64,000 nt of DNA from a virus. Lineage: Duplodnaviria > Caudoviricetes. Positions 1-13,296 of this stretch are shown piece by piece. A program made the position numbers and the translations under genes. The stretch spans positions 1 through 64,000 of the IMG/VR virus record IMGVR_UViG_3300033555_000001. One strand, given 5' to 3'. Numbering within the stretch: position 1 is the first letter of the stretch; every line of letters starts with the position of its first letter. The notes under the pieces were generated by a model that saw only the letters and a program-made list of their open reading frames with translations, ran no database searches and was not told where the DNA came from.

Positions 1-867
1 GATACAGGTAATGGCTTTGATGGCGGAGGTGGTGCGTTCATTGACGGATTAGTTCGCTTACCTGCATCTGGTACTGTTAAAAATTTATATACGATTTGCG
101 CTGCACCAGGAGATGGAGGAGGCAGCGCCGACCCTAATTCACAGAACTCAAAAAATGGGGGTTTTGGAGGTACAGGATACGCGTTCAGTAATAATTCTCT
201 CCAAAGTTCAAACGGCGGTCTTGGCGGCAACGCAGGGAATGAAGAACAAAGCGGCGGTGCGGGTGGTGGTGGTGGCAGCGGCGCGCTATGGTATGAAGCA
301 GATGGGTTATTTATACCTATTGCCGTATCTCCTGGCGGCGGCGGCGGCGCCGGCCTGGGGCATACCCCTAATATTAAAGATCCAAGTATAGTACCAAGTA
401 ATAGATTGAATAAAAACATTTTTATTGATATTAACGCCGGAATTTTTTTAGGTGGCATTGCCGGTCAGGGATCAAATAATCTACCTCCACAGGTTACTTC
501 GCCATCATACGATGGCGGTGCGGGTGGTGGTGGTGGTTCGATGTCTGGTACCGGCGGAATCTACCCAACTGAATTCATACAAGGACAAACCCGACCGCAA
601 GATGAAACTGCCGGCACAGGCGGCTCTACTGGTTTTGCTCAATATAATACTTCTTACGTACTCTCGTCAAGTAATTATGCTTTCATTAATAATAATTCCA
701 GCACCTCGAGGGGCACCGTCAACACCGGCTGGCAATCGGGTAATTATGGCTTTGGCGGTATTGGCGGCACCTTTTCTATATCGGGCAGTTCTGGAGTTCA
801 AGGAGTTACTTCAATTGCGTGGAGCACTCAAGTTTCTCAACCTAACCTTACCCCACCTGGAGTTTAA
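1..867 (+). CDS. Glycine-rich structural/tail-associated protein, 5' partial
   Basis: Frame 1 is open from base 1 (DTGNGFDGGGG...) into the track ORF 406..867, with many GGxGG runs. The 406 start is therefore not the true start. Confidence 0.7.
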   Translation, partial: DTGNGFDGGGGAFIDGLVRLPASGTVKNLYTICAAPGDGGGSADPNSQNSKNGGFGGTGYAFSNNSLQSSNGGLGGNAGNEEQSGGAGGGGGSGALWYEADGLFIPIAVSPGGGGGAGLGHTPNIKDPSIVPSNRLNKNIFIDINAGIFLGGIAGQGSNNLPPQVTSPSYDGGAGGGGGSMSGTGGIYPTEFIQGQTRPQDETAGTGGSTGFAQYNTSYVLSSSNYAFINNNSSTSRGTVNTGWQSGNYGFGGIGGTFSISGSSGVQGVTSIAWSTQVSQPNLTPPGV

Positions 868-1197
868 ATGATTAAGCATTCTTTTGTAATTGGCTCATTG
901 AGCTGCTCTCAAACTAATCCGGCCAAGCCAGATCTTGTTGTTGCGCTGCAAGTACAGTTCATGGCCGTAGATGATACTGATGGAATTAGCGCAAATATGG
1001 GGGCAGTTCTAAAAATTACAGAACCCGATCAATTCATTCTATTTCATGAATTAACGGAAGGTGTAGTGAACTTATGGGTAGAAAATCACGAGCAGTTCAC
1101 AAAGATTAAAGAAAGCCTTGAGGGTATTATTGCCATGAAGCAAAATCCGCCAGTAATTGAGCGTACAGCGCCGTGGATCTCTAAGGTTGTTGTTTAA
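868..1197 (+). CDS. Hypothetical protein, possibly tail-associated
   Basis: 109 aa ORF whose ATG directly abuts the stop of the upstream gene. Confidence 0.6.
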   Translation: MIKHSFVIGSLSCSQTNPAKPDLVVALQVQFMAVDDTDGISANMGAVLKITEPDQFILFHELTEGVVNLWVENHEQFTKIKESLEGIIAMKQNPPVIERTAPWISKVVV

Positions 1198-1271
1198 CAT
1201 TACTTGACTCGGGTTGGCAAACCGGCGGATCTGCTAAATAACTGTGTTGAATACTGAACCTGAAATTAATT

Positions 1272-1299
1272 TTACTTATCGGGTTTTTGTGTTAAGATT
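1272..1299 (+). promoter_or_regulatory. Sigma70-like promoter upstream of the leader/tRNA array
   Basis: TTTACT-N16-TAAGAT with an extended -10 (TGtTAAGAT). Confidence 0.55.
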
Positions 1300-1376
1300 C
1301 ATCTATCGAACGTTGAGGCGCCGGACAGAACTACGTTACCCGGGCGAACGTTCACTAACCTTATTAAGAGAGTATC

Positions 1377-1499
1377 ATGACTAAATTTTGTATGCAAACT
1401 TCAAATCGCTTCTGGCAAAATTGCCAGCGGTTTGATTTTGCCCGCAAAAATGAACATGAGATTAATACACACTTCCAGGCTGGAGGTTCTAAAGCGTAA
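1377..1499 (+). CDS. Leader peptide (40 aa) of a putative attenuator
   Basis: ATG at 1377 after AAGAGAG; reads MTKFCMQTSNRFWQNCQRFDFARKNEHEINTHFQAGGSKA*. The stop lies inside the antiterminator stem-loop. Not in the ORF track because it is short. Confidence 0.7.
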   Translation: MTKFCMQTSNRFWQNCQRFDFARKNEHEINTHFQAGGSKA

Positions 1500-1558
1500 G
1501 CTCTAGAAATCCAAATCCAACCTGGGAGACTATGAAAATAGTTTCCCAGTTTTGTTTT
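1473..1558 (+). terminator. Attenuator: antiterminator overlapping an intrinsic terminator
   Basis: TTCCAGGCTGGA (1473-1484) pairs with TCCAACCTGGGA (1516-1527). The terminator is CTGGGAGACTAT-GAAA-ATAGTTTCCCAG (1522-1549) plus TTTTGTTTT. Both structures need CTGGGA 1522-1527. Confidence 0.75.
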
Positions 1559-1773
1559 CGACTGGATTTAACAACCGCTTTAAGCTTAGCGGAATAGAAA
1601 TAAGGTTGGACCGCGATGAAACTGTCGAGTAGCCTTCAGACAGACGAGTGCGATAAAGGCAAACAAATTTAATAGGCCTGCTGTGAAAGCAGCGGGTTTA
1701 TTTTAAAGCGCAGCTAAGTGAACTAGACCAGGTAAGTAGAGCCAAAATCTCGAACTAGCGCGCTTTAAAATGA

Positions 1774-1848
1774 AGGGAGTAGGTGGATTGGCGACACGCA
1801 ACCTTCTGAGGGTTGATGCACAAGGTTCGATTCCTTGACTCCCCGCCA
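1774..1848 (+). tRNA. tRNA-Gln(CTG)
   Basis: Anticodon arm CAACC-TTCTGAG-GGTTG, T-loop TTCGATT, encoded CCA. Confidence 0.9.
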
Positions 1849-1853
1849 ACATT

Positions 1854-1929
1854 GCCGAGTGAGCTAGTGAAGTCATAGCGCTGGATTGAAAATCCGGAGA
1901 ACATGGAGCGTTACCGTGACTCGGCACCA
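1854..1929 (+). tRNA. tRNA-Phe(GAA), atypical T-loop
   Basis: Acceptor GCCGAGT/ACTCGGC, arm CTGGA-TTGAAAA-TCCGG, T-loop AGCGTTA, CCA. Confidence 0.85.
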
Positions 1930-1934
1930 GAATA

Positions 1935-2006
1935 CTACCGTTCCACTTCGGGTGAGGTGACCTGCCCTTCAAGCAGAGAAGACGAGTTCGACTCTCGTAC
2001 GGTAGA
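1935..2006 (+). tRNA. tRNA-Glu(TTC)
   Basis: Acceptor CTACCGT/ACGGTAG, loop CCTTCAA, T-loop TTCGACT; no encoded CCA. Confidence 0.8.
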
Positions 2007-2012
2007 TAATTT

Positions 2013-2096
2013 GTTCCGTGATGACTGCTGGTAACGGTCAGTACCCTTTCAAGGTACCGCCTCAGGGCTAGGGTTCGACTCCCGTACGCGATACCA
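2013..2096 (+). tRNA. tRNA-Glu(TTC)-like with long D stem and variable arm
   Basis: Arm GTACC-CTTTCAA-GGTAC, 5-bp D stem GACTG/CGGTC, extra hairpin GCC-TCAG-GGC, imperfect acceptor and T stems, ends ACCA. Confidence 0.6.
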
Positions 2097-2099
2097 TTT

Positions 2100-2171
2100 T
2101 TCGTGTTCGACTTCAGGTGAGGTCAGCGGGTAGAAAGCCCGCGTAGACAGGTTCGAGTCCTGTACACGGAA
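2100..2171 (+). tRNA. tRNA-like gene with degenerate anticodon loop (possible pseudo-tRNA)
   Basis: Intact acceptor TTCGTGT/ACACGGA, D arm and T arm (TTCGAGT). The loop TAGAAAG lacks U33 and there is no CCA. Confidence 0.55.
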
Positions 2172-2202
2172 TTAGTTATTCAGTCGTTTAAGTGTACTTT
2201 GC

Positions 2203-2275
2203 TCCAGTGTAGCTCAGTGGTAGAGCAGCTCCCTGTTAAGGAGACGGTCGTTGGTCCGATCCCAGCCTCTGGAGC
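2203..2275 (+). tRNA. tRNA-Asn(GTT)
   Basis: TAGCTCAGTGGTAGAGC D arm, loop CTGTTAA, T-loop TCCGATC; no CCA. Confidence 0.8.
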
Positions 2276-2368
2276 AAAGTACATTTTAAAGTAACAACGC
2301 CTACACGGTGTAATCGCAAAAAACGAGAGCGTCTGTTCTCGTGATTAATTCTGTGTAGGCTTTTCAGT

Positions 2369-2443
2369 TGGGTGCAGGCGGATTGGCGACGCGCGACCTT
2401 TTGAGGGTCGAAGTACAGAGTTCGATTCTCTGGTGCCCTACCA
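2369..2443 (+). tRNA. tRNA-Gln(TTG)
   Basis: Arm CGACC-TTTTGAG-GGTCG, T-loop TTCGATT, CCA. Confidence 0.9.
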
Positions 2444-2449
2444 ACATTT

Positions 2450-2522
2450 AGTTCCAAGGTGTTCATGGACGCACACGGCCCTGTCACGGCTGAGGAGAGG
2501 GGATCGTTACCCCCTGGAACTG
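2450..2522 (+). tRNA. tRNA-Asp(GTC), atypical T-loop
   Basis: Acceptor AGTTCCA/TGGAACT, arm CGGCC-CTGTCAC-GGCTG, T-loop ATCGTTA; no CCA. Confidence 0.8.
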
Positions 2523-2530
2523 GCGAATAT

Positions 2531-2602
2531 ATGTCTGCCGATGGATACGGTTTTGGCCCTGCGAAGGCTGAACAGCAGGTTCGATTCCTGCCAGACGTAC
2601 CA
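2531..2602 (+). tRNA. tRNA-Arg(GCG), non-canonical 72-nt form
   Basis: Acceptor ATGTCTG/CAGACGT, arm TGGCC-CTGCGAA-GGCTG, TTCGATT, ACCA. The D hairpin directly follows the acceptor stem. Confidence 0.75.
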
Positions 2603-2610
2603 ACATTAAT

Positions 2611-2687
2611 GGGTCTTAGGCCGAAGAGGATTAGGCACCTGGCTTTTAACCAGACATTAGGGGGTTCGAGTCCCCCAGGACCCACCA
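2611..2687 (+). tRNA. tRNA-Lys(TTT)
   Basis: Acceptor GGGTCTT/AGGACCC, loop CTTTTAA, TTCGAGT, ACCA. Confidence 0.9.
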
Positions 2688-2726
2688 ATACAGCAGGCTG
2701 ATATACTTACCAGCCTGCGCTACCAG

Positions 2727-3131
2727 TTAATCCAGGAAAATAATTCTAGCAGTACCGCTTTGCACGGTATTGAAGGTTATTGTAATTGTGTCTGGATCGT
2801 TGATAGTAATAGAGTCCGGAAAAATAACGGACTTGTTATTATCAAACGCCTGCACTATTACATTCTCCGAATTGAAGTTATGATTGACTACCCAGGTCAT
2901 GGCGGGTGTAGTTACTGGCACGATTGCTTTACGAATACCATTTCCTGCAAGCGGCAAACCCACAAGAGCCCCGTTCACAAAGGCAAGTACCTGCCCTTCT
3001 TGAAGTGTAATAGCGTCGAACTGACGAGGTCCTGCACCACGTCGAACGATAATAGTTTCTTGGGCTGGGTCCGTGTTTAGGTAGCCACGTTTTGGCAATT
3101 CTACCTGGACAAAGTCTTCAAAAGCACTCAT
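2727..3131 (-). CDS. Hypothetical structural protein
   Basis: 134 aa, beta-rich; its start overlaps the stop of the upstream 548 aa gene by one base. Confidence 0.6.
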   Translation of the reverse strand: MSAFEDFVQVELPKRGYLNTDPAQETIIVRRGAGPRQFDAITLQEGQVLAFVNGALVGLPLAGNGIRKAIVPVTTPAMTWVVNHNFNSENVIVQAFDNNKSVIFPDSITINDPDTITITFNTVQSGTARIIFLD

Positions 3132-4777
3132 TATGCCACCTCTTCAATGTCTACTTGCAGGGTGCCGGTGGTATTAGCGCCAGCAAAGTCTGCATCGGTG
3201 AGGAAAAGAAAACCACCGTTTGGATTGTAAGTACCATCTGCGTTGGTGATGGTAAAGCCTGCAAAGAACTGTGAAGTATCAGTACGACGCGTCAGCACAG
3301 AAGATCCAGTATAGCTTGCGAGTGTTTTGGTAAAGTCAGTAACGTTAGTACCAATCGCTGCTGTTTGCGAGAATGCTGCAAAGACAAGAGTTCGACGAAC
3401 AAAACCACCAACAACATAAGAGGCACCAGCGGTAATTGTAGAACCAGCTACATTTGCAATATTCGTTAAAACAAGCGTGTTAAACGTTTGTGATCCATCT
3501 ACATCTGCATCAGTGATTCTGAGCGTACGTGAGTAAACTCCGGCTGAGAACGTCCATGCACCCTGAAAAGTTCCGCTTGAAGCAACTAGAGTTGGCAGCG
3601 CATTCAGCAGTTGATTTGCGGTAATACGTACCGTGTAGTCCTTACCCGCTGGTGTTGATGTAAGTCGGGTTGGATTTCCAACAATTGAAATTGCTGCTGT
3701 TGGAGCCGTATTTGCAATTGAAATAGCTGCTGTACTAACCGTAACTGCGGCGTTCGAAGTTTTTGTTGCGGTAATTGTATAGTTCTGAACTCCAATTACA
3801 TAGCCACCGCTGACACGCGTTACGGTCTTTGTTGCACCATAGACTGATGGGTCAGTTACTGACAGATCTGCTGAAGAAGTGTATGTAACCGTATCTGCAC
3901 TAGTAACAGCAGCGGTAACAGTCGAGGACTCTGTGCCCTTCAGCGCAGATTGACCAGTTGGGTAAGTAATAACACGAGCTGCAATGCCCGGATAAGTCTG
4001 ATTCAGTGTAACTGTATTAGTGGTAAGGACGGTGGAACCAAAGGTTCCAAGAGCGTTGCGCGCCCGAACTGATGCACTTTGAACGCCAGATGCCGCGCCC
4101 ACAATAAAGGTGCCTGTTAAAGTTTTAAATCCGGTACCACCTGAATCTGTTGCTCCCAGCGTTAGCGAAGAAATAGATTTTGCTGCACCGCTGACTATAA
4201 CTTCAGCGTACGTTGCCGAGTTAGCTACAACACCAGAGATTGGCAGCACGTCATTTTGCTTTACCTCTGTTTGAGATCCTGGAAGCACTCCAATTGTGGC
4301 AGTCTGTACGGCTGGGCCTGCTTCAGCAACGGTGATTGTTGCAGTAGCTGTTGCATTTGTGTTTGACGTAATTGTGACAACAGAGTTCACAGTAATAATT
4401 AAGTCTGCAAAACCAGAGAAGAAGCGACGGTCAAACTGGTCTTCTGAAATGGTACCGGTAATTGGTCCACCGGCTTGTGGTGGCTCAGTTGTTACGGTAA
4501 CAGTTGGAGAATAAAAAGCTGATCCACCCTCTGCAATAAATGAGACACGAACGTTTTGTGTATCAGTCGTGCCGTTAATAATGACCCTGTTTGCTGGAAT
4601 AGTGTTGGGAACAAATTGCTTATTGCCAACAATACCCGTTGATGTTGGGGAAATGTCTGTGATGAACACACCCCCTACAATGGCACCCGAGATCACCTGA
4701 GCATCAACATATCTCTTTGTTGCTATTTCTTGAGGCAGTGTTGGATCAGTAGTCGCGGTGCTTTGATAAATCTTCAT
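3131..4777 (-). CDS. Thr/Ser/Gly-rich beta-sandwich (Ig-like) virion protein
   Basis: 548 aa with surface/structural composition; TATAAATA on the minus strand at 4826-4833 upstream. Confidence 0.6.
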   Translation of the reverse strand: MKIYQSTATTDPTLPQEIATKRYVDAQVISGAIVGGVFITDISPTSTGIVGNKQFVPNTIPANRVIINGTTDTQNVRVSFIAEGGSAFYSPTVTVTTEPPQAGGPITGTISEDQFDRRFFSGFADLIITVNSVVTITSNTNATATATITVAEAGPAVQTATIGVLPGSQTEVKQNDVLPISGVVANSATYAEVIVSGAAKSISSLTLGATDSGGTGFKTLTGTFIVGAASGVQSASVRARNALGTFGSTVLTTNTVTLNQTYPGIAARVITYPTGQSALKGTESSTVTAAVTSADTVTYTSSADLSVTDPSVYGATKTVTRVSGGYVIGVQNYTITATKTSNAAVTVSTAAISIANTAPTAAISIVGNPTRLTSTPAGKDYTVRITANQLLNALPTLVASSGTFQGAWTFSAGVYSRTLRITDADVDGSQTFNTLVLTNIANVAGSTITAGASYVVGGFVRRTLVFAAFSQTAAIGTNVTDFTKTLASYTGSSVLTRRTDTSQFFAGFTITNADGTYNPNGGFLFLTDADFAGANTTGTLQVDIEEVA

Positions 4778-5030
4778 TTGTCAAGCTCCTGTTAATATAA
4801 AATACATCTTTAAGATACAAATCCATATTTATAAGTGCTGCCATGCCCCGTTTTGACGCGGGTGAAAATAAATGGCGGTATAACATTAACATCCCTCTGC
4901 TTACGGATTAAGCTCGAGCGCTTCGAACGCTTGATGGGTGGTTTGACTCCATCCAGAGGGGCCAAGTTTCAATGGTGCGTTTCGCGTGTTTGGTATTGTA
5001 AATACTTCATATTACCAAAGGGGAGTAACA

Positions 5031-5417
5031 ATGATACTGCGTGAATTATTAAAATTGACAGAACAAAAGGTGTTTGCCACTGGCAAAAATGGAGCTCCAA
5101 GTAAATGCTTCCGGGAGGTTACATCACCTAGTTTGCCTAAAGATACCATCATAGGTTATGGCTCTGTCAGTGACGGAACAGAGACAGTTACACATGTGTT
5201 CCTTCTGGATGATAATGGAGACATTCAAGAACCAACCATGATGAAAGGGCAAACAGGCTTTGCGAAAGGCGCACCTATCACTCATCTGAAATACAAAGTG
5301 CTTGGTACGATTAAGCTTGGTGATCTGCCGAATGACGGCACTGATGGCATGCAGAAATGGAAAACTCGTGAAATAGCCATAGCAAAAATTGCCAATGAGG
5401 CAGCTAAGACAACTTAA
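5031..5417 (+). CDS. Hypothetical protein, candidate internal virion protein
   Basis: GGGAG RBS then MILRELLKLTE. Confidence 0.6.
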   Translation: MILRELLKLTEQKVFATGKNGAPSKCFREVTSPSLPKDTIIGYGSVSDGTETVTHVFLLDDNGDIQEPTMMKGQTGFAKGAPITHLKYKVLGTIKLGDLPNDGTDGMQKWKTREIAIAKIANEAAKTT

Positions 5418-5438
5418 CATCAGAATTACGATTTCAAT

Positions 5439-5515
5439 GGTGCCTGTAGTGTAATGATTTAACACCTCCCCCTGTGAAGGGGATATAGCGGGTTTGATTC
5501 CCGTCAGGCACCCCA
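5439..5515 (+). tRNA. tRNA-His(GTG)
   Basis: G-1 present, arm TCCCC-CTGTGAA-GGGGA, C73, CCA. Confidence 0.9.
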
Positions 5516-5536
5516 TTTTTTTAATCAGGAGTTATC

Positions 5537-5716
5537 ATGACAGAACTACAACGTGCAAGTGCACGATTATTTGGCCCGCACGGTATTGGCTGCAGCGATA
5601 TTAAAATTTTTCCGGGCGATGGTCAGTTCACGGCGGAGCAATTAGCAGGTGAAATCAACAAAGCGTTAGACGCGCTTCAGAGCGGTAACTATGAGCTCGT
5701 GCTTGAGGATGACTGA
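5537..5716 (+). CDS. Hypothetical protein (59 aa)
   Basis: AGGAG RBS; MTELQRASARLFGPHG...; not in the track. Confidence 0.55.
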   Translation: MTELQRASARLFGPHGIGCSDIKIFPGDGQFTAEQLAGEINKALDALQSGNYELVLEDD

Positions 5717-5807
5717 TAGTCTGACTCCTGTAACGACCGTTACACTTTAAACCGGCATTTTTCTCAGGTTGATGTTATAATCACTCATCGACTCACGGAG
5801 AACAAAA

Positions 5808-6077
5808 ATGCAAAAATTAGTTATTATGTGGGATATCGAAGCAAGTGAAACTAAAAATGTTTCTTTAACTTCACCAGTTCTCTACGAATCGCCAAAGAAA
5901 TTTCTGATGGATTTTGAGGCGGCTGTTGTACAGTCTAAGAAAAATAATCAATCTACTTTTATTTTTGCAAATCTCGCGTGGCGAACAGCGGATTTTTACT
6001 TCTCTGGTTGTGACATACCAATACTGCCTGAAGTCTTTACGCTTGACCAATGGTTTGAGGATTTTGTTGCACTTTAA
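5808..6077 (+). CDS. Paralog family A, member 1
   Basis: Shares KLxIxW...PVLYES...F...LDxWFE with 6132 and 7185; has its own promoter TCAGGTTGATGTTATAAT. Confidence 0.75.
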   Translation: MQKLVIMWDIEASETKNVSLTSPVLYESPKKFLMDFEAAVVQSKKNNQSTFIFANLAWRTADFYFSGCDIPILPEVFTLDQWFEDFVAL

Positions 6078-6131
6078 ATTAAAAAATATCAGGTTGATGT
6101 TATAATCACTCATTGACACTCGGAGAGTCTC

Positions 6132-6392
6132 ATGGAAAAGCTGATAGTAATCTGGCAAAAATCGGACTTTTATCACACTGATATGCCGACACCTGTTCTG
6201 TATGAATCACCAGAGAGGTTTCTTAGCGATTTTGCTGCAGCAATTCGTGCTGGTGTCGCCGCCCGCGAGCCAGAAATAAAATTTGCTGGTGTTGAGTGGG
6301 TCTGTGATGATTTTTATTATAATAATGATGTGATCATGTATCCGGACGTGTTTACTGTTGATGAGTGGTTTGAAACATTTGTTCCAAAATAA
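6132..6392 (+). CDS. Paralog family A, member 2
   Basis: Same motifs and same upstream promoter cassette. Confidence 0.75.
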   Translation: MEKLIVIWQKSDFYHTDMPTPVLYESPERFLSDFAAAIRAGVAAREPEIKFAGVEWVCDDFYYNNDVIMYPDVFTVDEWFETFVPK

Positions 6393-6451
6393 TGTACGTA
6401 CTGCTCAATTAAGCGTATAATTTTATTCAATCTTGTAAACCGGAGAATCAG

Positions 6452-6796
6452 ATGCATCGCACCGATACTCACACTCGTAGAATTTACTGCGTAGATGTTG
6501 CGGCTTCCTTTGCTAAACATCGTGCTGATTTGGTAGCTGTGGCAAAAGCTGAAGACTTAACCGTTATTTTAGACAGCGCCGACGGGTTCGTTGCAGAGGG
6601 TTTTGATCACTGCAAGAGTCGAATCAGATATCTTGCTGGTTCAATTGATCAGCCATTTGCGAATGGCCCATCACTGACTTGCATGGACGGGCATCTTATA
6701 TACCACACGCTTTTCCTGCCAAAAAGCGCTAAACCAGAGCAATCACGTAGAACGCAAATCGGCAAACAAATTGGAGGCAACTGCCACGATGTATAA
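6452..6796 (+). CDS. Hypothetical protein
   Basis: GGAG RBS, 114 aa. Confidence 0.5.
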   Translation: MHRTDTHTRRIYCVDVAASFAKHRADLVAVAKAEDLTVILDSADGFVAEGFDHCKSRIRYLAGSIDQPFANGPSLTCMDGHLIYHTLFLPKSAKPEQSRRTQIGKQIGGNCHDV

Positions 6797-7046
6797 TAAG
6801 ACTAAAACTGAAGCACCATTCATCCCTGATGGTTATTTGGACAACGTAAATCAAGCTATTGCCGAAGCAAACTCGCGCTTGAACAGAGCAGGAATGCCAA
6901 CTTATTCAGACCTCTTAGATATGCTTCGAACAGCCGAGACCCTTATCACGGGAGAGTTTAATTCTGCATTTGCCCACCAAGATGAAACTATTCAGCTGAT
7001 GGCACAAATACACAGTGCTTTCATTTATGCGGGCCGCAAAACGTGA
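6789..7046 (+). CDS. Hypothetical protein
   Basis: GGAGG RBS before ATG 6789. Confidence 0.55.
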   Translation: MYNKTKTEAPFIPDGYLDNVNQAIAEANSRLNRAGMPTYSDLLDMLRTAETLITGEFNSAFAHQDETIQLMAQIHSAFIYAGRKT

Positions 7047-7184
7047 ATCATGTTGAGCTCTCCAAGCTAGCACACTTCAAGCAATGGAACACTTCCTGGG
7101 TGACACAGACACGGCGCCCACCTGAAGAGCGGGAGAATACGATCGTTGCCAACACCAAGGACCATTTTTATTGTCGAGAGTAAT

Positions 7185-7472
7185 ATGAAAAAATTAGTTA
7201 TTCAGTGGAAACACGGCGATGACTGCACGTACAGCTGTACTTTAACGCAGCCAGTTCTGTATGAATCAGCTGAAGCGTTCTTAGTAGAATTTGAAGACGC
7301 GGTTGTTCAGGCAATGCACGCGGGTGTTGCAGAGTTTACATTTGCAAATATAATTTGGAACACTCACGAATTTACAGCGTTTAGTTTTATATATGACTGC
7401 ACGTCCCCCGTACTTCCTGCAGTTGCCGAGCTTGACGAGTGGTTTGAAATTAACTGTCAAGCGGTTAATTAG
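7185..7472 (+). CDS. Paralog family A, member 3
   Basis: MKKLVIQW...PVLYES...LDEWFE. Confidence 0.75.
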   Translation: MKKLVIQWKHGDDCTYSCTLTQPVLYESAEAFLVEFEDAVVQAMHAGVAEFTFANIIWNTHEFTAFSFIYDCTSPVLPAVAELDEWFEINCQAVN

Positions 7473-7695
7473 TTTTTGTGAGTTAGCACTAGTGGAAGTG
7501 CACTGCCCCCATACGGCAGAACGAAATCAGTTCGAACCTGATACTCACAACCAAACATATTGCCCTTTAGTTATAATATCACTTCAGTCAGAAAACAAGG
7601 TTGTTCTTTTATAATCCTTTTTTCGACGGTTGCTAAATAGATATTGCAGGAACAAACTGTCGTTGACAGTCTCCTAACTACTCAAAGGACATAAA

Positions 7696-8109
7696 ATGAT
7701 TAAATCTACTCTCGTAGTTCTGACTGCCGCTGCATCGCTTGGTCTGACAGGCTGCGCAACTAAGCAACAAACTGGCGCGCTGGTTGGTACCATTGTTGGT
7801 GCTGCAGTGCTTGGCCCAATTGGCGGCAGTGCAGCTGCTCACATTGGTGCGGCAATTGTTGGTGGTGTTATTGGTAACATTATCGGTTCAAAGATTGGTG
7901 CAAGCATGGATGCTCGTGATCGTATGCTGGCTCAAGACGCAGTTGCTCGCAACCAAAAGACCACAATCACCAGCACAAGCTCGAACGCTGTTTACGTTGT
8001 AACTCCAGAAGACCAGGGTAACGGTACCTCCAGAGTTACCATGGAACGGACGCAGGACGGTAAGACTTCTTCAGAAACAGTTATCATGAAGAAGCCAATC
8101 CGCGAGTAA
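7696..8109 (+). CDS. Glycine-zipper 2TM lipoprotein
   Basis: Lipobox LTGC, GAxxGAxxG zipper; TAAATAG at 7634. Confidence 0.75.
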   Translation: MIKSTLVVLTAAASLGLTGCATKQQTGALVGTIVGAAVLGPIGGSAAAHIGAAIVGGVIGNIIGSKIGASMDARDRMLAQDAVARNQKTTITSTSSNAVYVVTPEDQGNGTSRVTMERTQDGKTSSETVIMKKPIRE

Positions 8110-8135
8110 TCAAGGTTAGTTCAGTTATAAATAAG

Positions 8136-8160
8136 AGGAGTCTTACGGGACTCCTTTTTT
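8136..8160 (+). terminator. Intrinsic terminator
   Basis: AGGAGTC/GACTCCT hairpin followed by a T run. Confidence 0.7.
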
Positions 8161-8169
8161 GATTTCAAT

Positions 8170-8241
8170 GCACCGATGCCAGAATGGTAATGGGCGCAGC
8201 TGCAACCTGCGTATTTGGCGGTTCGATTCCGTCTCGGTGCT
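8170..8241 (+). tRNA. tRNA-Cys(GCA)
   Basis: Acceptor GCACCGA/TCGGTGC, loop CTGCAAC, U73. Confidence 0.88.
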
Positions 8242-8250
8242 CATGAATAT

Positions 8251-8324
8251 GGGGAAATAGTTTAGTGATAGAACAGGGCACTCCAAACGCTCTGGCCGAG
8301 GTGTGATTCCTCGTTTCCCTGCCA
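8251..8324 (+). tRNA. tRNA-Trp(CCA), copy 1
   Basis: Loop CTCCAAA, T-loop TGTGATT, GCCA end. Confidence 0.75.
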
Positions 8325-8363
8325 GCTTTATGTTAAAATATTATTTTAACTACTAATATTACA

Positions 8364-8555
8364 ATGAACGCACTTGAACGAATTTGGGCCCGAGCCACTG
8401 GCCACTTAATGGGCGAAACAGATCAGGATCGTCCTGATGTTCCAGTGTTAAAATTAAAAGAGGCCAGAATTGCTTTGGCTCTAAAAACATTCTGGATTGT
8501 GCTTCATACTGTAACCTGCGTTGCGATCATTGCAAATGTAATCAGGCACTGGTAA
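8364..8555 (+). CDS. Small membrane protein
   Basis: 63 aa with a C-terminal hydrophobic helix ending VIRHW. Confidence 0.6.
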   Translation: MNALERIWARATGHLMGETDQDRPDVPVLKLKEARIALALKTFWIVLHTVTCVAIIANVIRHW

Positions 8556-8569
8556 TCACAATGAACGCT

Positions 8570-8641
8570 ACCTCGTCTGTGGGATACAGTATTGGGACTT
8601 CTAATCCTGAATGAGAGGTTCGACTCCTCTACGAGGTCCCA
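8570..8641 (+). tRNA. tRNA-Arg(TCT), non-canonical 72-nt form
   Basis: Acceptor ACCTCGT/ACGAGGT, loop CTTCTAA, TTCGACT, CCA. The D hairpin CTGT-GGGAT-ACAG directly follows the acceptor. Confidence 0.75.
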
Positions 8642-8687
8642 TCAGCCACGCGCCAGCTAAATAGCTCTATATTTTTATGGAGCCTAA

Positions 8688-9281
8688 ATGATTAACCTTC
8701 CACGCCTGCAAATTCTTGCAGAAGCACGCCAGCCTGATTTAAAGTACAGTGACAAACGCGTCAAGGGCGCACTTGAAAAAGTAACACTTGAGCTCCAAGG
8801 TAACAACTCTGGTGCCATGACACGGCTTACAAAACGCTATGAGCGCCTGGACCGATCAGCAAAGCTGCTGACTGAAAAACGAAATGAAGTAAACGCGCAG
8901 ATTAAAAATGTTGGTGATCAGCTCTTTGATGCTGAGGACAGTATTGCTACGCGAATTATCGAAACAATTTCATGCACCATCATGTTAACTGCTGCGCAGA
9001 AAGCAGCTGACAAAGCGCCAAGCAAAAAGATTGATTTTGAATCAGCATACGCTGAGCTTGCAAAGCTAGTGCCAGAGCTGCAGGAAAAAGTCGATATGAT
9101 TACTGCTAAGTACACCGAAATTATTGCCGCAAAAGATACTCCAACGGCTCTTCGAGTAAAATTGAAAGAGGGAATTTTGGATACCTTAAAGAGCTGGATC
9201 AAAGGGTTTATCAGCGAAATTAAATCTTGGGGAACATCTTATGACGCTAAGCTTGCCAAAATTAAGGCGCTGCTGAAATGA
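8688..9281 (+). CDS. Helical hypothetical protein, candidate virion protein
   Basis: 197 aa; TAAATAG at 8658; GGAG RBS. Confidence 0.65.
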   Translation: MINLPRLQILAEARQPDLKYSDKRVKGALEKVTLELQGNNSGAMTRLTKRYERLDRSAKLLTEKRNEVNAQIKNVGDQLFDAEDSIATRIIETISCTIMLTAAQKAADKAPSKKIDFESAYAELAKLVPELQEKVDMITAKYTEIIAAKDTPTALRVKLKEGILDTLKSWIKGFISEIKSWGTSYDAKLAKIKALLK

Positions 9282-10123
9282 AATTAAGCGAACTTCTATG
9301 TGAAAACGCGTCTGGTTATGATAATCTGAGTTCGTCTGCAAAAGAAATGTTGGCTTATCTTATTCATGATAAGTCACACGTGTTTGATAAAATCTCAACC
9401 AACAAAGACATGGTTGAAGTGCTCAGCAAGCACTCTGAAAAATGTAATAAGACACTGTATCGCGGTGTTTCACCTGCAGAGCTAAAGCAAATTAAGGCTG
9501 GAAAACCGCTTTCCTATCACACCTCATATTCAGAATCAAAAGAAATTGCTGAGGGTTTTGGGACAGTTATCACGGTACTTCCACCAACTACAGGTTTTTG
9601 CTATTGGAAGTACCAAAAGAAAACTCTTGAAGCTTTGCGCAAAAACGATCCAGAAGAATTTGATTCTGTCGATGGAGAACACGATCTTAAATTATCTCTT
9701 GACGAAAAAGAATGGATTTTTGATATTGGTGTAGTGTTCACGGAAACCGCTGAACTTACATATAAATTTGGCGCCGCAGAGCAAACAAAGAAAGCTGATG
9801 TTGCGGCGGCTAGCGATGCTTTAAAAATTGAAGACATAAAAGTCGGCGATAGAGTCTCGTTCTTATCTGATACCACATACGGGACAGGTGAGAAGAGTAG
9901 ACAGGCCGGTAAAGTAGTGTCAATCACTAGAGCTGGAGAACCTATTCCAGCCGTTCCAGGCTATGATTTCAGCATAAACAATAAAGATTCACAGCCGGGA
10001 AAACCTACAAAATTTGATTTGTTGTTTGTGAAAGCGGAACATGTTAACCTCGCTGGTAAAATTAGCTATGTGCCGATGCTCAGCAGTCAAATTGTTAAGA
10101 GTGCTAAATTTAGTTGGGAATAG
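9278..10123 (+). CDS. Putative ADP-ribosyltransferase (R-S-E class)
   Basis: LYRG, TSYS and EKE motifs in the correct order; C-terminal SH3-like segment. Confidence 0.55.
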   Translation: MKLSELLCENASGYDNLSSSAKEMLAYLIHDKSHVFDKISTNKDMVEVLSKHSEKCNKTLYRGVSPAELKQIKAGKPLSYHTSYSESKEIAEGFGTVITVLPPTTGFCYWKYQKKTLEALRKNDPEEFDSVDGEHDLKLSLDEKEWIFDIGVVFTETAELTYKFGAAEQTKKADVAAASDALKIEDIKVGDRVSFLSDTTYGTGEKSRQAGKVVSITRAGEPIPAVPGYDFSINNKDSQPGKPTKFDLLFVKAEHVNLAGKISYVPMLSSQIVKSAKFSWE

Positions 10124-10242
10124 ATAGATAAGCGTGTTATAATAGTTTCAAGATAATTCGAGAGCGAGTGAAAGACGAATTATGCTGCCTAGAGAAATTT
10201 AGGTTCTGCGGTTAGCAGAGGTAACAGAGTCTCGCAAGTTAT

Positions 10243-10313
10243 AGGGGCGTGGTGTAGTGATAGCACAAGGGTCTCCAAAACCTTTAGTGGGAGTTTGATT
10301 CTCTCCGCCCCTG
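10243..10313 (+). tRNA. tRNA-Trp(CCA), copy 2
   Basis: Acceptor AGGGGCG/CGCCCCT, arm AGGGT-CTCCAAA-ACCTT; no CCA. Confidence 0.8.
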
Positions 10314-10499
10314 GTCCTGGTTAATTTGTACAAGTAAAGTTCCCTAAGACCCTGCACGGGACAACCCACCAGTAAATGGTCTAGCACAGCCTAGGTAAGC
10401 GGAACCAATCTATAGTTCTAAACTCCATAATCAACAGTTTACACCTCTCTGGTAATAGAGTAGAATAATCTTTTATTCTGGTCTACGTCAAGGGATTTT

Positions 10500-11513
10500 A
10501 TGAATCGCATTGGTTTTGCCTGCAAATGGATCGACAGCGCGTCTCAGGTTAACGCAATTGGCGCCAATGATCCGGCAAAAGAACTTAATCCCTGCACTAC
10601 TACAATTACTTGGCTTGCAAAGCAAACGCGCGAAGTGGCTGAGCAAAAGCTGTTTAGCCTCATGAAGTACAATATTGAGGCCACGCGTCGGTTAGTAGAG
10701 CGAGTTGGCCAGCAGCCTGCGCACTTGCGCATGGTGCGGCTCAGCAGCGATTTGCTCATGGCGTACACACACGTAGACCACCGTGATTGGTGGCAGCGCC
10801 CTGACGTACAGGACTATTTGGAAAAGAATTTTAGAGTTGTTGGCGATTTAGCACGAGCACTAGACGTGCGTCTTAGCATGCACCCTGGCCAGTTCTGCGT
10901 ACTAGCAAGTGTCAGCGATGGAATTATTGAGCGCTCAATTGAAGAATTTGAGTACCACACGGACATGGCCCGATTTATGGGGTACGGCTCAAAGTTCCAA
11001 GACATGAAAATCAACGTCCACATTAGTGGCAAGCGTGGCCCACAGGGTATCAAGGACGCACTCCAGCGACTGTCGCCAGAGGCGCGCAATATGATTACCA
11101 TTGAAAACGACGAGATGAGCTGGGGTGTTGATGCAAGCCTGGCGCTGGCAGATGACCTGGCCTTGGTGCTTGATATTCATCATCACTGGATTCGCACGGG
11201 TGAATACATCCAACCAACTGATTCGCGCTTTCAGGCCATGATCGAATCCTGGCGTGGTGTGCAGCCCGTAATTCACTACAGCGTAAGCAGGGAAGATGTG
11301 TTGCCTGATCATGTTACGACCGTGCTGCCCGACCACGCGGCCCTGCTAAAAACAGGTCACAATAAATCCAAGCTCAGGGCGCACAGCGATTTTTACTGGA
11401 ACACTGCAGTAAGCGATTGGGCAGGCAGCTTCCAGCCCTATGCAGATATTATGTGCGAATGTAAATCCAAGAATTTAGGAAGTGCAGCTTTTGCAGCACA
11501 AGTTTATAAGTAA
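10500..11513 (+). CDS. uvsE: UV damage endonuclease
   Basis: RIGFACK, RLSSD, RLSMHPGQF, TIENDE, LDIHHHW, HYS and RAHSD motifs. Confidence 0.92.
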   Translation: MNRIGFACKWIDSASQVNAIGANDPAKELNPCTTTITWLAKQTREVAEQKLFSLMKYNIEATRRLVERVGQQPAHLRMVRLSSDLLMAYTHVDHRDWWQRPDVQDYLEKNFRVVGDLARALDVRLSMHPGQFCVLASVSDGIIERSIEEFEYHTDMARFMGYGSKFQDMKINVHISGKRGPQGIKDALQRLSPEARNMITIENDEMSWGVDASLALADDLALVLDIHHHWIRTGEYIQPTDSRFQAMIESWRGVQPVIHYSVSREDVLPDHVTTVLPDHAALLKTGHNKSKLRAHSDFYWNTAVSDWAGSFQPYADIMCECKSKNLGSAAFAAQVYK

Positions 11514-11519
11514 AACAAC

Positions 11520-11596
11520 ACGTCTGTAGCTCAATTGGACAGAGCAGCGGTCTTCTAAACCGCAGGTTGTGGATTCAAATTCCGCCAGACGTACCA
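11520..11596 (+). tRNA. tRNA-Arg(TCT), canonical
   Basis: TAGCTCAATTGGACAGAGC D arm, arm GCGGT-CTTCTAA-ACCGC, ACCA. Confidence 0.9.
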
Positions 11597-11602
11597 GATT
11601 TA

Positions 11603-11632
11603 AAACGCTATTTGTCACCTAATGCCTCTATA
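11603..11632 (+). repeat. 30-bp exact dispersed repeat, copy 1 (copy 2 at 53770-53799)
   Basis: AAACGCTATTTGTCACCTAATGCCTCTATA occurs at both positions. Confidence 0.85.
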
Positions 11633-11698
11633 TGGCGCGTAATACACATAACACTCTCAGGCACATCTAAATAGAACTCTCTATTATGCCTTTTTCGT

Positions 11699-12571
11699 AT
11701 GAAATTTTTCAAAAAAATATTGGCGTTAATGCTGGCACTTCCATTTGTCGGAGTGTCCCTGGCTACTGATCGCCCGCTTTATACAATTTACACTGCGTCC
11801 GCAAAGGGCACGTACTACCAATTTGGCCTTGATATTCAACGCGCCTGTCCTCATCTAAAAATTCAAGTAATCAACACACACGGCTCCCTAGACAACGTTA
11901 ATAATCTGATTCAGCCATCAGTGATGAGGACTGGTCACCAGTTTGCTCTTGTCCAAAATGATGCGCTTGCTGCAATGACTGAAGATGAACCGCGGCTTAA
12001 GGCGCTGATCACTCCAGCAATGCGGATGTACAGCGAGGAAATCACCGTGCTTGTTAGCAAGAGCTCTAATATTCAATCGCTGAGCGATCTTGCCGGGAAA
12101 CGAGTAGCAGTTGGAGTTGTAGGATCTGGTACCTGGTTTTCGGCTGCCGCCATCAAGTCTCAGCTTGGCATTACATGGGCTTCGATTGAAATACCAGCAG
12201 AAGAAAGTTTACTTGGTGTGCTGTCCGGGGATATTGACGCGCTTATTACCGTAAGCGGCCACCCAGTAAAATTTTTTAGTGAGCTTGGAGCCAGCATGAA
12301 GGGTCACGTAAAGCTGCTTAACATGAGTGGCGTTGAGCTGGACCAAATGTATAAAACCGCGGTGCTCCCAAAAAACACGTATCTTTGGCAAGACCGCGCC
12401 GTAGAATTACGCTCCACGCGCTCCACTATGATTACTCCTTCATCAACTCCTGAATCGGCCACACGCGCCCTTATTCAGTGCATCAGCTCGAAACAAGAAG
12501 AGCTGCGAGCATGGGGACACCCAAAGTGGCGCACCATGCAGTTTCCAGCAGTATCAACAAAGACTAAGTAG
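11699..12571 (+). CDS. TAXI-family TRAP solute-binding protein
   Basis: Signal peptide; GTYYQFG, THGSLDNVNNL, ALVQND, SLSDLAGKRVAVGxxGSGT motifs. Confidence 0.85.
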   Translation: MKFFKKILALMLALPFVGVSLATDRPLYTIYTASAKGTYYQFGLDIQRACPHLKIQVINTHGSLDNVNNLIQPSVMRTGHQFALVQNDALAAMTEDEPRLKALITPAMRMYSEEITVLVSKSSNIQSLSDLAGKRVAVGVVGSGTWFSAAAIKSQLGITWASIEIPAEESLLGVLSGDIDALITVSGHPVKFFSELGASMKGHVKLLNMSGVELDQMYKTAVLPKNTYLWQDRAVELRSTRSTMITPSSTPESATRALIQCISSKQEELRAWGHPKWRTMQFPAVSTKTK

Positions 12572-12573
12572 CC

Positions 12574-13296
12574 ATGGATCCTAAAAAAGATAAACTGACA
12601 GAAGATAAACTGACAGAAGATAAACTGAGTTGGGTTCCTGCAATACAGGATTTTACCGACAAGTTAACAATAACACGAATTGTCACAGCACTGTTTGCAG
12701 GTATCATGTTCACCGGAATGATGATGGTGTATGAAAACCGTGATTTGATTTTTGAAAAAATTTACAATACCGGCCAGCGCCCGCAACCCAGCGCAATGCT
12801 TTTGTCAGTGTGGGATGTAACTCCTAAAACAAAAGAAGATTTAATTTCCCTAGTAAAGGGTTCCAGCTTAATTTCTTTTGCGCTTATTACTGAAGTTGAC
12901 TTGCAGAAAAACCGCAGCACTGCTAAGCACTGGTTTCTGGACGATCCAAACGAGGCGCAAATCCGAGCGCGGGCTTCTACTGCCCTGCCGCAGGCGGTGT
13001 TTGACTATGACGCCAAAAACACGCAGCAAATGGTAGGTGTGTTAAACAACGATTTTGTGTGTGCCAAATTTACTGACACAATTTACGTGCGGTCATTTCC
13101 TGATCTTGCAAAACGTGTGCCAGTAATATGCCGCATTGCAATTCCACCGTTTTACGGGAAGTTTGTAGGTATCCTAACATTTGGCCTGCGCGTACAGCCT
13201 ACAAAGGACGAACTAGACTCGATTAGACTTGAGGCTTCTAGGCTAGCAGTTGAAATTTACTTGCGCGATATTCTAAAAAAGCAACCAACAAAGTAA
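12574..13296 (+). CDS. Single-TM protein with periplasmic GAF-like domain (T4 holin T-like), paralog 1
   Basis: N-terminal TM segment, two conserved Cys, ICRIAIPPFYGKFVGILTF...IRLEASRLAVEIY. Confidence 0.5.
   Translation: MDPKKDKLTEDKLTEDKLSWVPAIQDFTDKLTITRIVTALFAGIMFTGMMMVYENRDLIFEKIYNTGQRPQPSAMLLSVWDVTPKTKEDLISLVKGSSLISFALITEVDLQKNRSTAKHWFLDDPNEAQIRARASTALPQAVFDYDAKNTQQMVGVLNNDFVCAKFTDTIYVRSFPDLAKRVPVICRIAIPPFYGKFVGILTFGLRVQPTKDELDSIRLEASRLAVEIYLRDILKKQPTK

Follow-up and report, generated by a model that had tools for sequence, protein, structure and literature searches.

A putative leader-peptide attenuator, with codons matched to the tRNA genes behind it, at the head of a tRNA array in an uncultured jumbo phage

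The reason why phages carry transfer RNA (tRNA) genes is an open question, and the ideas put forward include compensation for codon usage, the replacement of host tRNAs lost to degradation and evasion of anticodon nucleases. The locus described here, in which an array of tRNA genes stands behind a short open reading frame (ORF) and a strong transcription terminator, raises the further question of whether, and by what means, a phage adjusts the production of its own tRNAs. We report the analysis of this locus in a window of 64,000 nucleotides, the first 64 kb of the single 310,728-bp virus record IMGVR_UViG_3300033555_000001 (a jumbo phage; 45.5% G+C). All coordinates refer to this window, and the regulatory elements and tRNA array described below lie on its plus strand. 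Our comparison of this locus with its relatives makes it likely that a ribosome-mediated (leader-peptide) transcription attenuator gates the tRNA array, with sensing codons matched to the tRNAs that it controls, and the phage probably makes the array tRNAs when ribosomes decode the matching codons slowly. A leader-peptide switch ahead of tRNA genes is unexpected.

The leader ORF (1377-1499) consists of 40 codons and a TAA stop, begins with ATG, with AAGAGAG 5 nt upstream, and, as in an attenuator, lies upstream of and co-oriented with the tRNA genes. Between the ORF and these genes lies an intrinsic terminator (1522-1558), made up of a 12-bp stem (1522-1549) with a GAAA loop and then a TTTTGTTTT tail, which ranks above every other terminator-like site in the first 13 kb. 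The last nine codons of the leader form the 5' strand (1471-1496) of an antiterminator hairpin (1471-1529), whose apical loop holds the stop codon (1497-1499) and whose 3' strand (1500-1529) has positions 1522-1529 in common with the terminator. This is again the layout of an attenuator, an alternative structure that takes bases of the terminator with one strand and would have its other strand under the translating ribosome. In the core arms of the antiterminator, 1473-1484 with 1516-1527, 11 of the 12 positions are paired, with one G-U, and the duplex energy is -19.6 kcal/mol (z = -4.5 against shuffled sequences). The ORF, the terminator and these core arms had been named in an earlier reading of the window from its letters alone (hereafter the original prediction), and all three were found at the positions given there, although the antiterminator extends beyond the core. 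The ten tRNA or tRNA-like genes that it placed behind the terminator are present as well. They lie at 1774-2687 in the order Gln(CUG), Phe-like, two Glu-like, Phe, Asn, Gln(UUG), Asp, Arg(GCG) and Lys(UUU); seven of these are found by ARAGORN at its default setting and three only at a relaxed threshold. Convergent genes (2727-4777) end the tRNA unit and, because they begin at 2727, only the ten genes at 1774-2687 belong to the unit behind the terminator.

From this arrangement we infer the following course of events. Transcription would begin upstream of 1377 and a ribosome would translate the 40-codon leader as RNA polymerase advances, the polymerase possibly being held at a hairpin within the ORF (H1, described below) until the ribosome arrives. 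The last nine or so codons would serve as the 5' strand of the long antiterminator hairpin, the 3' strand of which includes the 5' arm of the terminator. A ribosome running smoothly to the stop codon would unwind and occupy the 5' strand, upon which the terminator would fold and transcription would end at about 1555. A ribosome delayed in codons 2 to ~30 by a scarcity of cognate charged tRNA would leave the antiterminator folded, and the polymerase would then pass through a conserved structured RNA, here called module B, into the tRNA genes. Such a response would be homeostatic, a short supply of the array tRNAs bringing about more transcription of the array and, because codons 2-30 use almost only amino acids cognate to the array, the switch would act as a multi-input gauge of the array tRNA set. 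The natural trigger could be starvation, host shut-off, the action of anticodon nucleases or simply feedback from the tRNAs that the phage itself makes.

The order ORF, antiterminator, terminator, (module B) and tRNA array is found in 17 distinct loci of uncultured large phages, this one included. In all 17 the ORF begins with ATG and is 40-45 codons long, with indels in frame, and the conserved Arg, Phe and Glu codons of the leaders vary synonymously at the third position. A search with a profile of twelve leader peptides against 5.8 billion proteins yielded 43 further homologous peptides, of 40-48 amino acids (one called at 68 amino acids from an upstream start), the few source names of which are generic or evidently spurious. 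Pattern scans on the conserved stretch of module B recovered 22 viral loci and a few metagenome loci; a further 31 matches in bacterial genomes, and most of the 33 in metagenomes, were set aside as chance matches in GC-rich coding DNA. The leaders are of two types. Those of type B (L080, L102 and L103) have a diverged peptide and retain the layout of H1, antiterminator, terminator and stop codon in the loop, while the leader studied here is of type A.

Both alternative structures are preserved across this family. A terminator of -12 to -30 kcal/mol lies between the ORF and the tRNAs in 17/17 loci, which is the position expected for attenuation. In each of the 12 loci tested for it, the last 60 nt of the ORF pair with the terminator 5' arm and the 4-8 nt upstream of this arm, the duplex energies being -18 to -26 kcal/mol (z = -3.5 to -5.9 against 500 dinucleotide shuffles, p <= 0.004 each). 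The sequences of the arms vary from locus to locus, for example CCCCAGGC/GCCTGGGG, ACCCTGGTCTT/AAGACCAGGGT, CCCTGGTTCT/AGAACCAGGG and CCCTTAGTG/CACTAAGGG. Since the arms fell out of register when the switch region was aligned with MAFFT, pairs were counted in an anchored register, in which positions -2 to +7 are paired in 11-17 of the 17 loci, with 2-6 Watson-Crick pair types at each of +1 to +7. Pairs outside the terminator stem covary too, and the complementarity of the arm within the ORF is therefore no side effect of its resembling the terminator 3' arm. The stop codon always lies in the apical loop of the antiterminator. When the nascent transcript is folded without the terminator 3' arm, the structure of minimum free energy is the antiterminator in 17/17 loci, whereas the full-length fold has the terminator, so that the choice between the two is kinetic, as in the classical attenuators. 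A further conserved structure, hairpin H1 (1412-1427; CTGGCA AAAT TGCCAG), occupies codons 12-17 of the leader and is a candidate RNA-polymerase pause hairpin. RNAalifold gives it as the sole consensus helix among 16 loci (5 pairs, of which 3 are compensated, with 1 broken cell of 80), and H1 was not found to pair with the antiterminator arm.

The composition of the leaders ties this switch to the tRNAs behind it. In 49 unique type-A leaders, the portion from residue 2 to the length minus 12 contains 4.0% Leu+Ser+Pro+Gly+Ala+Tyr (n = 1414), with no Pro, Gly or Tyr at all and only 0.1% Leu. The same six amino acids make up 40.8% of the last 12 residues, about 40% of the proteome of this phage, and 43% and 35% of the translations of the same bases in the other two frames. 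The boundary between the two compositions coincides with the start of the antiterminator arm, and a ribosome stalled upstream of it would leave the arm free. The arrays behind type-A leaders, of up to 27 tRNAs, hold only tRNAs for Lys, Glu, Gln, Asp, Arg, Ile, Phe, Asn, Met, Cys, His, Trp, Thr and Val, with the lone exception of a single Ala tRNA in L101. In the loci with a full array, 26-29 of the 29 leader residues belong to the array set, against an expected fraction of 0.52-0.61 (p = 1e-4 to 2e-7); as in an attenuator, the leader codons match the regulated product.

The type-B loci show the same relation with a different set of amino acids. Upstream of their last 12 codons, type-B leaders are rich in Ser, Leu, Gly, Pro and Tyr and contain no Lys, Asn, Ile or Ala. 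Their arrays include Ser, Leu, Pro, Gly and Tyr tRNAs and have none for Lys, Asn, Ile, Thr, Val or Ala; in the genome G006, the Lys, Asn, Ile, Thr and Ala tRNAs are placed in a separate cluster ~43 kb away. Measured against the set of their own arrays, type-B leaders mismatch at 5/93 residues, and against the type-A set at 43/93, while type-A leaders show the reverse. Leader composition follows the tRNA content of the array across related genomes, in one frame and only upstream of the antiterminator arm. This, together with the conservation of the ORF and of both alternative stems through compensatory changes, answers positively the two comparative tests that the original prediction had proposed, and supports its reading of the locus as a ribosome-mediated attenuator.

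For the phage studied here the match is partial. Among the 29 sensing residues, 19 match the short array (Gln, Phe, Glu, Asn, Asp, Arg and Lys; p = 5e-4), and 24 match once the scattered His, Met, Cys and Trp tRNA genes are added. When all ATG ORFs of 35-60 codons in the whole genome are ranked by their content of array-cognate amino acids, the leader comes first of 570. The original prediction had counted 27 of the 40 codons, and 22 of the 25 in codons 10-34, as specifying the amino acids with tRNA genes in the window, and these counts are correct. Its statement that these were "exactly" the ten amino acids so represented proved to be an artefact of the window, in which a tRNA-Met gene (7477) makes eleven, and the enrichment loses significance against the full genomic tRNA set of 17 amino acids (35/40 against 0.76 expected, p = 0.06). 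The tRNAs behind the terminator, and not those of the whole genome, are the proper reference. The present leader looks to have been inherited from an ancestor with a full array, like that of L084 or L098.

The foremost of the other explanations is that the element is indeed a ribosome-dependent attenuator but reports general translation capacity (ribosomes, elongation factors, antibiotics) or responds to a ligand of the nascent peptide, in the manner of TnaC or SpeFL arrest, rather than to the supply of array tRNAs. Any slowing of the ribosome would give the same outcome at the RNA, the order of residues in type-A peptides is conserved, with FWQQRQ and RFERHEID blocks, and most leaders have Trp at codon 13. 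Trp and Gln are invariant in type-A leaders, but they coincide with hairpin H1. The Trp-Gln-x-Cys-Gln block survives at the RNA level in loci with a changed peptide (L085, L011 and type B), and in type-B leaders the Trp lies on the other strand of H1. Because H1 remains where the peptide changes, the conservation of this stretch appears to be better explained by the RNA hairpin than by sensing, and Trp-Gln-x-Cys-Gln-Arg was set aside as a sensing or arrest motif. In the type-B loci the peptide is very different and the RNA layout the same, and a general sensor would need neither the frame-specific exclusion of amino acids that the array lacks nor the matching shift of type B. We regard this explanation as improbable.

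A second alternative is that the ORF encodes a free-standing protein of 40 amino acids with a terminator of its own, that the upstream complement of this terminator is incidental, and that a separate promoter drives the tRNAs. The conservation of the peptide family, an A-rich stretch resembling a -10 box (TATAGAAAT) between the terminator and the tRNAs, and the occurrence of module B without the leader in three lineages would all accord with such a reading. Yet covariation of the antiterminator is seen in 17 loci and includes bases that lie outside the terminator stem, the stop codon is always in the apical loop, and none of the 43 database peptides carries a precomputed Pfam domain. A switch from a leader rich in Lys, Asn, Thr and Ile to one rich in Ser, Leu, Gly and Pro, in step with the neighbouring tRNA genes, would also be unexpected of such a protein, and we consider the proposal very unlikely. 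No more credible is an untranslated RNA switch (a riboswitch, a T-box-like element or a protein-controlled attenuator) with the open frame as a by-product. In its favour are the strong structure of the region 1300-1560 (z = -5.0), the RNA character of H1 and the antiterminator, and the resemblance of module B to an aptamer followed by a hairpin. Against it, the ATG, the frame and the length of 40-45 codons are kept in 17/17 loci despite indels, the excluded amino acids stand at 4% in frame against 35-43% in the other frames, and no Rfam family, T-box included, matched at E <= 1. Each of these alternatives fails to explain a composition that is specific to one frame, limited by the antiterminator boundary and matched to the array.

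Several points nevertheless weigh against attenuation by array-tRNA supply. We infer leader translation, termination and read-through alike, and the public sequencing runs that contain this DNA are one ice and one glacier metagenome, with no RNA run among them. The Shine-Dalgarno sequence is weak in the leaders of several relatives. The full-length fold thermodynamically favours the terminator, which leaves either outcome conceivable for a ribosome-free transcript, and a promoter between the terminator and the tRNAs, in the A-rich stretch of module B mentioned above, would make the attenuator only a partial one. The array of this phage is short, covering seven amino acids, with only 19/29 residues matching; its His, Met, Cys and Trp tRNA genes follow other genes at a distance of kilobases, and the Thr and Ile tRNAs lie at 276-288 kb. 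The rather conserved order of the type-A peptide is something that a pure codon counter would not need. Tandem runs of regulatory codons were not found: codons of 13-14 amino acids are interspersed, without the runs seen in classical attenuators such as those of his, phe, leu and trp, and the sensitivity of the leader to a partial shortage is hence uncertain. Finally, types A and B represent only two independent lineages.

The closest known systems are the leader-peptide attenuators of enterobacteria, such as trpL, hisL, leuL and pheL, the multivalent thrL and the ilvGMEDA leader, and the pheM leader of the pheST synthetase operon. The phage element resembles these in its short ORF, proposed to be translated, in its mutually exclusive antiterminator and terminator, in the location of the antiterminator 5' strand within the ORF, in the in-ORF hairpin as a possible pause signal, in the proposed role of ribosome position in deciding termination and in the relation of the sensing codons to the controlled product. 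It differs from them in being phage-encoded, in standing before tRNAs rather than enzymes or synthetases, in sampling 13-14 amino acids once or a few times each in place of a tandem run of one to three, and in a long antiterminator hairpin that carries the stop codon in its apical loop. Unlike the enterobacterial leaders, it has no obvious anti-antiterminator of the 1:2 type. The T-box riboswitch (RF00230) likewise couples tRNA status to the choice between terminator and antiterminator upstream of translation-related genes; it binds uncharged tRNA directly and needs no ORF, and a cmscan search of 1-13000 at E <= 1 gave only tRNA and chance matches.

The closest parallel in function is cellular: the trn operon of Anabaena PCC 7120, which comprises 26 tRNA genes under the repressor TrcR and is induced in translational stress, is similarly an accessory tRNA array that is kept low and switched on under such stress (PMC10272220). 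There the control is exerted by a ribbon-helix-helix DNA-binding repressor at the promoter of a cellular operon (PMC10272220), whereas the viral element would use a leader peptide and an RNA switch. A search of the full-text literature found no paper tying leader-peptide attenuation to phage or cellular tRNA genes. The same design can be seen in the cultured Caulobacter phage CcrBL9 (MH588546, ~88760-88970; L104, 5160-5370), in which a promoter is followed by a 32-codon ORF, a copy of the terminator 3' arm within this ORF, and the terminator. The ORF is rich in Arg, Gln, Val, Ile, Phe and Asn, and the seven-tRNA array consists of Val, Ile, Val, Gln, Asn, Arg and Phe. CcrBL9 has a different host, belongs to another phage lineage and has neither sequence similarity to the present family nor module B; the likeness looks like convergence or a very old shared logic and, CcrBL9 being cultured, it offers an experimental route.

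Were the attenuator to work as proposed, the phage would gauge the decoding of exactly those codons that its array serves and make tRNAs on demand, a "supply and demand" hypothesis that could be tested by simple reporters. Classical attenuation, so far a matter of amino-acid biosynthesis and of one synthetase operon, would be extended to tRNA genes and to a sensor with 14 inputs. The two leader types, which change composition along with their arrays, amount to an unusually clear natural experiment, and the element, as a sensor of tRNA availability, would give synthetic biology a compact and portable part. We put forward, tentatively and with more doubt than confidence, a further idea, in which codon-matched leaders are multi-input detectors of tRNA damage. 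The loss of any of ~14 host tRNAs, through anticodon nucleases or through decay induced by phage or host, would stall the ribosome and release a burst of replacement tRNAs, and module B would then make the polymerase processive or mark the transcript for processing, giving a two-stage, RNA-only control of a viral back-up for translation.

Module B itself (1575-1704) is a conserved structured RNA of ~130 nt between the terminator and the first tRNA. Its parts are a stem P0 (1575-1592), an A-rich linker, GGACCGCGATGA (1608-1619), the stem P1 with an invariant loop (1622-1643), CGAGTGCGATAAAGG (1645-1659) and a terminal hairpin (1677-1696) followed by a U-rich tail. The core, GACCGC...CGAGTAnnCTTCAG...CGAGTGCGAnAAAGG with P1, is near-invariant; in 16 sequences P1 shows covariation at four pairs and no broken pair, P0 covaries as well, and the terminal hairpin often has a U-rich tail. 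A covariance model found exactly one copy of module B in each of five genomes, and no Rfam family matches either module B or the leader. Module B stands at the head of tRNA arrays in the window and in L003, L008, L009, L011, L023, L076-L087 and L097-L103. In L009, L023 and L076 it occurs without the leader attenuator, and in the type-B loci L102 and L103 it follows the first tRNA. Our guess is that it may be a cis-acting signal for processivity or processing of the long untranslated array.

In three lineages, HNH or GIY-YIG endonuclease genes are inserted beside module B. ORFs of HNH, NUMOD4 or GIY-YIG type were seen beside module B or inside the arrays in L076 (~5650-6010), upstream of module B in L102, L009 and L100, and in L103 (4818-6551), and both the RNA gene of module B and the tRNA genes are possible homing sites.

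The three tRNA-like genes of the array that were seen only at the relaxed ARAGORN threshold, one Phe-like (1854-1929, anticodon GAA) and two Glu-like (1935-2006 and 2013-2096, anticodon UUC), are unusual in the D or variable region and could be copies that have diverged or are decaying; Rfam supports only the Phe-like gene among them (36 bits). Between tRNA-Asn and tRNA-Gln there is a long inverted repeat, GCCTACAC...GTGTAGGC (2300-2360), with an inner hairpin (2323-2342). In the genome as a whole ARAGORN finds 25 tRNA genes, 14 at 1.7-11.6 kb and 11 at 276-288 kb. The tRNA genes found elsewhere in the window (His 5440, Met 7477, Cys/Trp 8170, Arg 8570, Trp 10242 and Arg 11520) come after protein genes and have no leader cassette. 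The 276-288 kb cluster, which bears out the caveat of the original prediction that more tRNAs might lie outside the window, contains Tyr, Pro, Leu, Thr, Ile and Ser tRNAs and one CTA suppressor, and has no leader-plus-terminator cassette. This suppressor, an amber tRNA of anticodon CUA that ARAGORN labels Pyl, lies at 276500-276575 in the present phage (G000) and has counterparts in L096 (8865-8940) and in L097, ~5.6 kb upstream of module B there; read-through or recoding of TAG in some genes is a possibility.

Upstream of the leader two kinds of promoter-like sequence were noted. The promoter of the original prediction (1272-1299) failed a consensus scan; a sigma-70-like promoter under the scan threshold can be read at 1271-1298, with TTTACT, a 16-nt spacer and an extended -10 of TGtTAAGAT (1290-1298), and the extended -10, TGTTAAGAT, is kept in the three close relatives L082, L084 and L098. 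At 1234-1242 there is a motif like the late promoters of T4, CTAAATAAC, of the TATAAATA class and of putative function. The cgCTAAATA / TATAAATA motif is found upstream of the leader ORF in most related loci, in the same position class in L078, L083, L079, L011, L008, L080 and L102, and the presence of a late-type motif besides sigma-70-like -10 boxes suggests that transcription of the unit may occur in more than one phase of infection. The fold of 1300-1560 shows a hairpin in the 5' untranslated region (1308-1353) in which the palindrome GAACGTT(C) occurs twice (1309-1316 and 1346-1353). GAACG repeats also precede the leader in the relative G001 (L019), and these sequences might act as an RNA element or as the operator of a DNA-binding protein.

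Among deposited phages there is no close relative of the window. A blastn search with 1200-2700 against 50,697 phage records returned only similarity to tRNA-Asn or nothing, and searches of the same records with module B (blastn) and the leader peptide (tblastn) placed the family in no cultured phage. The 109-amino-acid neighbour upstream of the leader has no relative among viral contigs. The tail sheath protein has 44% identity to that of Pseudomonas phage PaBG. The IMG/VR relative with the closest tail sheath (71% identity) shows no synteny at this gene and has its tRNA array elsewhere; directly before this array it carries a stretch 80% identical to 1589-1659 of the window. Its locus runs, in order, through a 40-codon ORF, a terminator, the conserved stretch, a second hairpin and the tRNAs, and the stem of its terminator differs in sequence from that described here while the GAAA loop and the U-tract are the same.

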